Shown here piece after piece: positions 41,975 to 43,178 of a stretch of DNA of 64,000 bases. The stretch is taken from assembly GCA_964016885.1 (NCBI GenBank), contig OZ024743.1, positions 109,926,001 to 109,990,000 on the forward strand, written 5' to 3'. The notes beneath the pieces were generated by a model. It was not told the DNA's origin, did no database searches, and saw nothing but the letters and a program-made list of their open reading frames with translations. Within the stretch, counting starts at the first letter, position 1. Each line of letters starts with the position of its first letter. This DNA comes from Eledone cirrhosa (lineage: Eukaryota). The position numbers and the translations under genes are program-made.

Positions 41975-43178
41975 AAGTTGTAATATAATGAAACGAAATT
42001 TCATTTATCACTCTTAGTACGGCACTTACTTAAATGTAAGTATGTATGTATACGTACATACATATATGTATACAGACGTACAGTAGCATGCATATATATA
42101 TATATATACATATATACATACAGGTACACATATAGATATGTACGTATCAGTTTAGCGGACGTTTATTATAACGCCCGCTTTGTCCGTTTGTAAACAAGCG
42201 GACAGCCTGATTTATGCCGTACGGTGTTAAGGCAACCACGTCACCTTTTTGTTCAACACTGACACAGGAACGATGTACTAGTTTCAAGCTACTTAGCTAT
42301 CATCAGCACCGTATACCCTCCTGCAAGATGGTTGAACGTTCGAAAGTATATACTTTCCTTATGAAAATTAACGGCTGAGCAGCCTAATTTGCATATCGAG
42401 TGAGTTCAGTCGGCCAGGCGTACCGAAAACGATAAGTTATAATATAATGAAACGAAATTTCATTTCTCACTCTTCGTACGGCACTTACTTAAATGTAAGT
42501 ATGTATGTATACGCACATACATATATGTATACAGACGTACAGTAGCATGCATATATATATATATATATATATATACATATATACATACAGGTACACACAT
42601 ATATATGTACGTATCAGTTTAGCGGACGTTAATTATAACGCCCGCTTTGTCTGTTTGTAAACAAACGGACAGCCTGATTTATACCGTACGGTGTTAAGGT
42701 AACCACGTCACCCTTTTGTTCAACACTGACACAGGAACGATGTACTAGTTTCAAGCTTCTTAGCTAGCATCAGCACCGTATACCCTTCTGCCAGATGGTT
42801 GAACGTTCGAAAGTATATACTTTCCTTATAAAAATTAACGGCTGAGCAGCCTAATTTGCATATCGAGTGAGTTCAGTCGGCCAGGCGTACCGAAAACGAT
42901 AAGTTGTAATATAATGAAATGAAATATAATTGTTCCTGTGTCAGTGTTGAACAAAAAGGTGACGTGGTTGCCTTAACACTGTACGGCATAAATCAGGCTG
43001 TCCGCTTGTTTACAAACGGACAAAGCGGACGTTATAATAAACGTCCGCTAAACTGATACGTACATATATATATTTATGTGTACCTGTATGTATATATGTA
43101 TATATATATATATATATATGCATGCTACTGTACGTCTGTATACATATATGTATGTACGTATACATACATACTTACATA
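41975..43178 (-). mobile_element. Retrozyme-like array, family F: two 467 bp units plus an inverted partial
   Basis: HHRs at 42271-42311 (CGGTG-CTGATGA-T AGCT AAGT AGCT T-GAAA-CTAG-TA-CATCG) and 42738-42778. Octamers at 42387 and 42854. No recognisable ORF. Confidence 0.88.

Follow-up and report, generated by a model that had tools for sequence, protein, structure and literature searches.

What kind of element is the short, hammerhead-bearing tandem repeat that sits inside a (TA)n microsatellite of the Eledone cirrhosa contig OZ024743.1, and how did it come to lie there? The locus, here called F, was analysed together with a diverged copy (D) and two distant sister families (P and G) within one stretch of 64,000 nucleotides (henceforth the window; all coordinates refer to it). 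An earlier note on this DNA had described F as a retrozyme-like array of 467-bp units, each with an internal TA-rich tract that might anneal to genomic (TA)n or seed new runs, and capped by a partial inverted copy. The features on which the analysis draws are collected in Table 1.

The tandem array (41976-43175) consists of two units of 459 and 467 bp, and TRF returned a period of 467 with 2.1 copies (41973-42925). The 467 bp originally given for the unit therefore holds for the upper unit, the lower one measuring 459 bp; the spacing of 467 bp between hammerheads was recovered as stated (cores at 42306 and 42773), and so, by BLAST, was the inverted copy at the end of the array. Units A and B are distinguished by 17 substitutions and one 8-bp TA indel. 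Read in RNA sense, the main arm runs from a 20-bp partial tail through unit B and unit A into a tail of ~56-58 bp that ends at 41976. The locus has a GC content of 37%, its longest ATG-initiated ORFs comprise 46 aa (sense) and 54 aa (antisense), and it contains no RT/GIY-YIG ORF of the kind that defines an autonomous EN+ Penelope-like element (PLE); an LTR layout was not seen at F by BLAST within the 64-kb window. The cut-to-cut monomer was predicted to fold at -162.9 kcal/mol (z -8.9), compared to -123 kcal/mol (z -5.1) for the opposite strand, and z was -3.8 against -2.8 for the two strands when the TA segment was removed. F is thus a non-coding array (GC <50%) of short tandem units, each with a type I hammerhead and a highly self-paired monomer, which upholds its description as retrozyme-like, and its unit lengths lie inside the 51-972 bp range given for retrozymes (bioRxiv 10.64898/2026.07.22.740005). 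Two consecutive units with complete motifs, the mark of an active locus as worded by Li et al., are absent (unit B: A9>C). F is a decayed copy, which bears on its activity and not on its family membership.

Table 1 Features of locus F, its empty-site paralogue, the diverged copy D and families P and G (positions in the window)
Feature	Coordinates	Strand
F: left remnant of target (TA)n	41950..41975	.
F: 3' tail of main arm, ~56-58 bp past inner end site; hairpin; outer priming junction 41976	41976..42033	-
F: TA-rich segment, unit A (104 bp flanked by TACAT on both sides; pure TA at 42092-42108)	42034..42142	-
F: hairpins 3' of hammerhead, with distal strand of helix I; covariation among F, D, P	42143..42269	-
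F: type I hammerhead A, core intact, predicted GUA cut between 42276 and 42275	42270..42312	-
F: TATA-like palindrome, 43 bp after octamer	42342..42357	-
F: octamer ATGCAAAT, 88 bp before hammerhead core	42387..42394	-
F: internal tail of unit B	42435..42492	-
F: TA-rich segment, unit B (112 bp; pure TA at 42551-42575)	42493..42609	-
F: hammerhead B; core A9>C at 42767; cut position 42743/42742	42737..42779	-
F: octamer of unit B	42854..42861	-
F: partial third tail (~20 bp), 5' end of main arm, stops at tail hairpin apex	42906..42925	-
F: inverted arm, head-to-head with main arm	42929..43175	+
F: right remnant of target (TA)n	43176..43273	.
Empty-site paralogue of F flanks; uninterrupted (TA)n ~45780-45847	45317..46126	+
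D: tailless main arm of ~1.4 units, ending at inner site; internal (AT)32 at 19182-19245	18661..19283	-
D: inverted arm, tail only, running into (TA)n	19284..19335	+
P: pair of head-to-head arms with decayed hammerheads; TA-rich segment absent; only left arm has a tail	55314..56250	.
P: third copy (P3); unit ~364 bp between inner sites	62..486	-
G: inverted and tandem arm (321-bp unit); TA-rich segment absent; only left arm has a tail	43612..44462	.
G: further copy	47823-48132	

The hammerheads of F and D are encoded on the minus strand (D core at 18921), with cuts predicted after 42276, 42743, and 18891. A relaxed hammerhead descriptor gave six window matches with a score of at least 13 and none in each of ten block shuffles. 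In F, helix I comprises 6 bp, helix II 4 bp, and helix III 2 bp with a palindromic loop; hammerheads A and D both have the layout of the canonical metazoan type I form (core CUGANGA...GAAA...UH; helices of 6/4/1-2 bp; palindromic loop), which is described as working best as a dimer (PMC4209133). The predicted active fold costs 4.4 (A) and 1.5 (D) kcal/mol over the MFE. At the base of helix II, a U.U mismatch is found in both F units and a U-A pair in D in place of G10.1-C11.1, so the claim that D keeps its stems paired is fully true of D only, F having the mismatch. U.U at this position is reported as a tolerated, active natural variant (PMC3088659, PMC7229834), and GUA as a natural cleavage triplet (PMC1636495); the D hammerhead (18885-18927) carries GUU. 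The second F core reads CUGAUGC, as the earlier note had it (A9>C), and this change probably impairs hammerhead B. In an Rfam scan of the whole window, no hammerhead was among the 150 of 172 matches listed, and the F motif alone gave no hammerhead match; D within 201 nt gave a full-length, sub-threshold match to Hammerhead_HH9 (23.2 bits compared to a gathering value of 52, E 9e-4). Rfam miRNA matches in the window were discarded as TA-repeat artefacts. Further hammerhead-like cores, which belong to other families, occur at 4123, 49342, 49921/52480, 58980, 60862, and 2373, several of them with a long helix II or III.

The diverged copy previously placed at 18661-19340 was located by BLAST at 18661-19335 and is ~76-78% identical to F. 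Using a profile of the non-TA part of F and D, family P was found at an E-value of 6e-6 (reciprocal search 1e-5 to 1e-4; pairwise z 6.4-8.9), while the relation of family G to F/D is weaker (E 0.011; z 2.6-7.0; the G profile did not recover F). The octamer/TATA block, the hammerhead, and the inner 3' end site are common to F, P, and G, and P has the hairpins as well. Collinearity of P with F extends to either side of the TA segment (0/500 and 0/500 upstream; 5/500, 16/500, and 11/500 downstream), and unit sizes are 355 bp for F minus the TA segment, ~364 bp for P3, and 321 bp for G. An exact scan of bacterial and archaeal genomes with a 28-bp conserved block gave 0 matches. A SINE-like dispersed repeat was also observed (3530-3741, 24260-24405, 29638-30023, 55804-55926), one piece of which lies between the two arms of P.

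Covariation was evaluated on the predicted folds. Between F and D, the F fold shows four compensatory pairs (P 0.005) and 14 broken pairs (P 0.17), the D fold shows no compensatory pairs, and the opposite-strand control shows three (P 0.012). With P added, 9 of the 24 named pairs in four helices are double-changed, including helix II; the stem covariation that the earlier note looked to is absent from helix II between F and D (one-sided changes only, zero compensatory) and present there between F and P. In the cross-family fold, 91.5% of cells are paired. Of five measures, four were reached by at most one of 500 shuffles and the fifth by 128 of 500; the comparison is not a formal test, because the structure comes from the same alignment and the sequences are related. 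Taken across families, covariation supports the predicted RNA fold. No invariant stretch in six copies of F, D, P, and G is longer than the octamer, which is perfect in 8/9 copies at 82-99 bp before the core and is followed after 34-44 bp by a TATA-like motif in 8/9 copies. The excess of the octamer in the window (14 vs. 6.6 expected) was disregarded as inflated by repeat copies, the fixed position alone being informative. snRNA-type Pol II promoters use the octamer, and the octamer/TATA block may represent an internal promoter of the minus strand; a proximal sequence element was not identified at F. For newt satellite 2, an internal Pol II promoter of the snRNA type is given in a secondary statement (PMC2220036).

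The ends of the arms point to the mode of insertion. The F inverted arm comprises 247 bp; it starts 1 nt after a predicted hammerhead cut, lacks a tail and stops at the inner site, and is closer to unit A than to unit B (private substitutions over 239 columns: A 1, B 8, inverted arm 3; P 0.056); the partial third tail has one diagnostic base in common with tail A and not with tail B. Polarising the A/B differences with D was abandoned because the alignments disagree (3/8 sites match B in one, 1/8 in another). D has the reverse arrangement, with no more than a tail as its inverted arm and a main arm that stops at the inner site. Head-to-head arms with a tail on one arm only are found at 4/4 two-armed loci (F, D, G, P), and an inverted 5' copy with a tail on one end is a hallmark of PLEs (PMC8557442, PMC3846280). 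In vitro, PLE protein is reported to nick and extend both strands of AT-rich DNA and to start at two adjacent internal RNA sites that are non-homologous to the target; the PLE tail arises because the RT uses both start sites (PMC11167929). Of the 3' ends examined, 10/10 run into (TA)n within 12 nt, compared to 10.9% of window positions, these ten having been picked by inspection and six of them coming from P and G. Among 5' arm ends, 1/10 lies at a cut site (~10% by chance), which rules out cut-site ends as a rule and leaves the start of the F inverted arm at cut + 1 suggestive only. A rule of one round plus a little was likewise dismissed (D ~1.4 units, G ~1.55 units), and a tail motif shared by F and G is kept as a weak lead: its 10 window matches all fall in F, D, or G, but the pattern was drawn from these, and tail alignments gave P 0.05-0.17.

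The target is preserved in an empty state. The flanks of F (41491-41949 and 43197-43551) align end to end with the paralogue at 45317-46126 (29 mismatches in 810 bp, 96% identity), and since (TA)n is unbroken there, F entered a pre-existing (TA)n; the paralogue also argues against an assembly artefact at F. The (TA)n measures ~68 bp in the empty and 26 + 98 bp in the filled site, lengths from which duplication and slippage are indistinguishable inside (TA)n. The empty site and the 10/10 ends together constitute a microsatellite target of the PLE type. The duplicated host segment (41491-43551, 45317-46126) is itself composite: it is terminated by the 3' end of a further TA-targeting family, also present head-to-head at 36507-36571 and 36830-36893, and family G occupies the next TA tract, so that the insertions are stacked.

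Coding PLEs are present in the window as well. A remnant at 6665-8353 has an RT match (Pfam E 6e-5, below cut-off); its homologues are 55-60% identical at best, some with GIY-YIG, the named ones being from shark, coral, and gastropods; GIY-YIG matches lie at 34421-34786 and 47086-47649, and 3/12 ORFs scanned had a Pfam match. By eye, 39020-39628 within 39020-40512 (-) has the CxCX5C linker of the Hydra clade, and Neptune- and Hydra-type clades have been linked to microsatellite/(TA)n targets (PMC8557442). A Neptune-like PLE with a DKG motif, a CX4CxxC linker, and a frameshifted RT-EN spans 5031-8614 (-); it is bounded by (TA)n, and ~120 bp separate its 3' end from a minimal hammerhead at 5151. 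Decayed PLE ORFs are located at 33416-34786 (+), 39020-40512 (-), and 59479-60015 (-). Another PLE family (46540-47779, 57608-58852, 54124-55238) comprises a GIY-YIG ORF end (47086-47649), minimal hammerheads (46784, 57914, 58601), an inverted arm, and a one-arm tail ~57 bp long. A long-helix II hammerhead family was observed at 41169-41426 (+), 37370-37620, 61094-61464, and 1731-2076; the copy at 41169-41426 ends exactly at the predicted cut and the one at 37370 near it after an internal deletion. Long near-perfect palindromes (18281-18580, 27396-27755, 27765-28535, 52914-53594, 60754-61097) are mostly (TA)n-bounded and are probably inverted-arm insertions. The coding PLEs of the 64-kb window have no detectable sequence in common with F (BLAST, nhmmer), and a candidate driver was not found there.

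The TA-rich segment of F, present in each unit as originally reported, would in one account act as a guide, its internal (UA)n pairing with genomic (TA)n and thereby targeting or priming insertion. We regard this as very unlikely. F and D both retain the segment and both lie in (TA)n, the 3' arm of the segment by the inner start site is well conserved, and EN-minus PLEs are described as making comparable use of reverse-complement telomeric repeats beside hammerheads (PMC8557442). Yet when the insertion junctions were mapped, 0/4 F-family priming junctions fell in the pure internal tract (microhomology ~2-3 nt), the tract is sequestered in a predicted stem (mean unpaired probability 0.18), and PLE protein in vitro primes at RNA sites non-homologous to its target (PMC11167929). 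P and G, from which the segment is absent, run into (TA)n at 6/6 of their 3' ends, so that (TA)n targeting is independent of it; the proposed annealing was accordingly not upheld. In F and D, the position of the segment coincides exactly with the inner end site; it is flanked by TACAT on both sides, its start resembles a junction into (TA)n, and it is self-complementary in part. It is probably a captured old target or junction, a passenger and not an annealing guide, a reading suggested by its absence from P and G in spite of their (TA)n ends and by the 0/4 junctions; gain versus loss of the segment is unrooted. The pure tract measures 16, 24, 20, 20, and 64 bp across five copies and its sub-position differs between loci F and D; it varies like a microsatellite, and each insertion would therefore deposit a new TA run. 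The suggestion that the tract seeds new (TA)n is upheld in part.

Two further accounts dispense with a retrozyme. F could be a truncated pseudo-LTR (pLTR) insertion of an autonomous PLE, with two pLTRs in direct orientation and a third inverted, and a tandem that grew locally, which appears quite unlikely: consecutive units in F, D, G, and P are without an ORF remnant (46 aa at most in F for an ATG ORF in sense), the F hammerhead is canonical and not of the minimal PLE type found at 5151, and P and F diverged as non-coding structured units, even though a layout of two direct plus one inverted pLTR is known for PLEs (PMC3846280) and retrozymes have been proposed to derive from PLE termini with subsequent local amplification (bioRxiv 10.64898/2026.07.22.740005). 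The many long palindromes of the window and the covariation on the opposite-strand control would in turn suit a DNA-level satellite or foldback element, in which the hammerhead is a chance or fossil motif and the palindromes stem from DNA repair or template switching. Such an origin is highly improbable given that the hammerhead descriptor matches are absent from shuffles, that the hammerhead strand is predicted to fold more stably than its opposite whether or not the TA segment is included, that helix II covaries between F and P, and that the end sites are fixed across four families.

The preferred reading, to which we assign a probability of about 0.72, is that F is a partly decayed copy of an animal non-LTR retrozyme that would have been inserted in trans by a PLE RT/GIY-YIG protein. 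The locus shows a pre-existing (TA)n target, two-site head-to-head arms, no ORF, a conserved fold and octamer/TATA block, and a TA segment absent from its sisters; from these we infer transcription, cleavage, circularisation, and the identity of the enzyme. The internal octamer/TATA promoter would transcribe the minus strand into multimers, which the hammerheads, probably as dimers via palindromic helix III, would cut to units that may circularise. PLE protein would nick both (TA)n strands and, on each strand, prime cDNA from either the inner or the outer start site, the two cDNAs would be joined at their far ends, and the choice of target would lie with the protein. The inner start site would be where the ancestor of F and D captured the TA segment, which would since have ridden along as a long stem, expanding and contracting as a microsatellite.

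A bolder extension, which we consider unlikely, is that both F arms were copied from one hammerhead-processed B-A dimer RNA, cut at A-type ribozymes only, B being dead. One full round of the circular form plus a further 20 nt would give the main arm, and the linear form, read to its 5'-OH end, the inverted arm. This would fit the array length, the cut + 1 start, the A-like inverted arm, and the one shared tail base, all at a single locus; it is opposed by the 1/10 5' ends at a cut site, by the D and G arrays, which are not of whole-number length, by gene conversion or later unit gain as explanations of the same data, and by uncut RNA being the main in vitro substrate (PMC11167929). If true, F would be a fossil record of a PLE enzyme templating on ribozyme-cut, circularised RNA, a template step that is hypothetical in the retrozyme cycle and not seen among the in vitro results presented for PLE RNA.

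Like metazoan non-LTR retrozymes as described in PMC7229834 and bioRxiv 10.64898/2026.07.22.740005, F consists of short non-coding tandem units with one type I hammerhead each and strong self-pairing, and its U.U at the helix II base is as in the active axolotl HHR_Amex2 (PMC7229834). Unlike these, its unit is slightly longer than the reported RNAs of 170-400 nt, and it has a microsatellite-like segment, an inverted arm, a one-sided tail, a (TA)n target, and an empty site; the words "inverted", "tail", and "microsatellite" are absent from the main text of PMC7229834, and bioRxiv 10.64898/2026.07.22.740005 lacks the word "tail" and has "inverted" in a reference only. With EN+ PLEs (Neptune, Hydra, Naiad, Poseidon), F shares the head-to-head inverted 5' arm, the one-end tail, partial tandems, (TA)n, and a hammerhead near the 3' end, but it lacks an RT/GIY-YIG ORF, its hammerhead is canonical instead of minimal, and tails of the F group measure ~56-65 bp compared to the 30-40 bp reported for EN+ PLEs. 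Non-autonomous Chlamys elements such as MRC1 are similarly non-coding, PLE-mobilised, and multicopy head-to-tail, but are algal, mostly without hammerheads, and similar at the 3' end to their autonomous partners (PMC8557442). Newt satellite 2 (PMC2220036) resembles F as a hammerhead-bearing tandem repeat, F having a candidate internal promoter, but forms long arrays.

Both retrozymes and their link to PLEs are already published (PMC7229834; bioRxiv 10.64898/2026.07.22.740005); these sources base the proposal that PLEs mobilise animal retrozymes on co-occurrence and pLTR similarity and describe the mechanism as open. Within literature listings and open-access main texts, retrozymes with inverted arms, tails, and empty sites, or with a captured microsatellite, were not found described, which is weak evidence of absence. 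To the published proposal, the F, D, P, and G loci add junction-level footprints, i.e., an empty site, an inverted arm, and a one-sided tail, and they define a short RNA with mapped start sites that is directly testable with PLE protein. The loci further show how TA repeats can be acquired and carried by elements that target (TA)n, and how such elements can pile up inside these repeats, which may be part of the reason why some genomes are rich in microsatellites.
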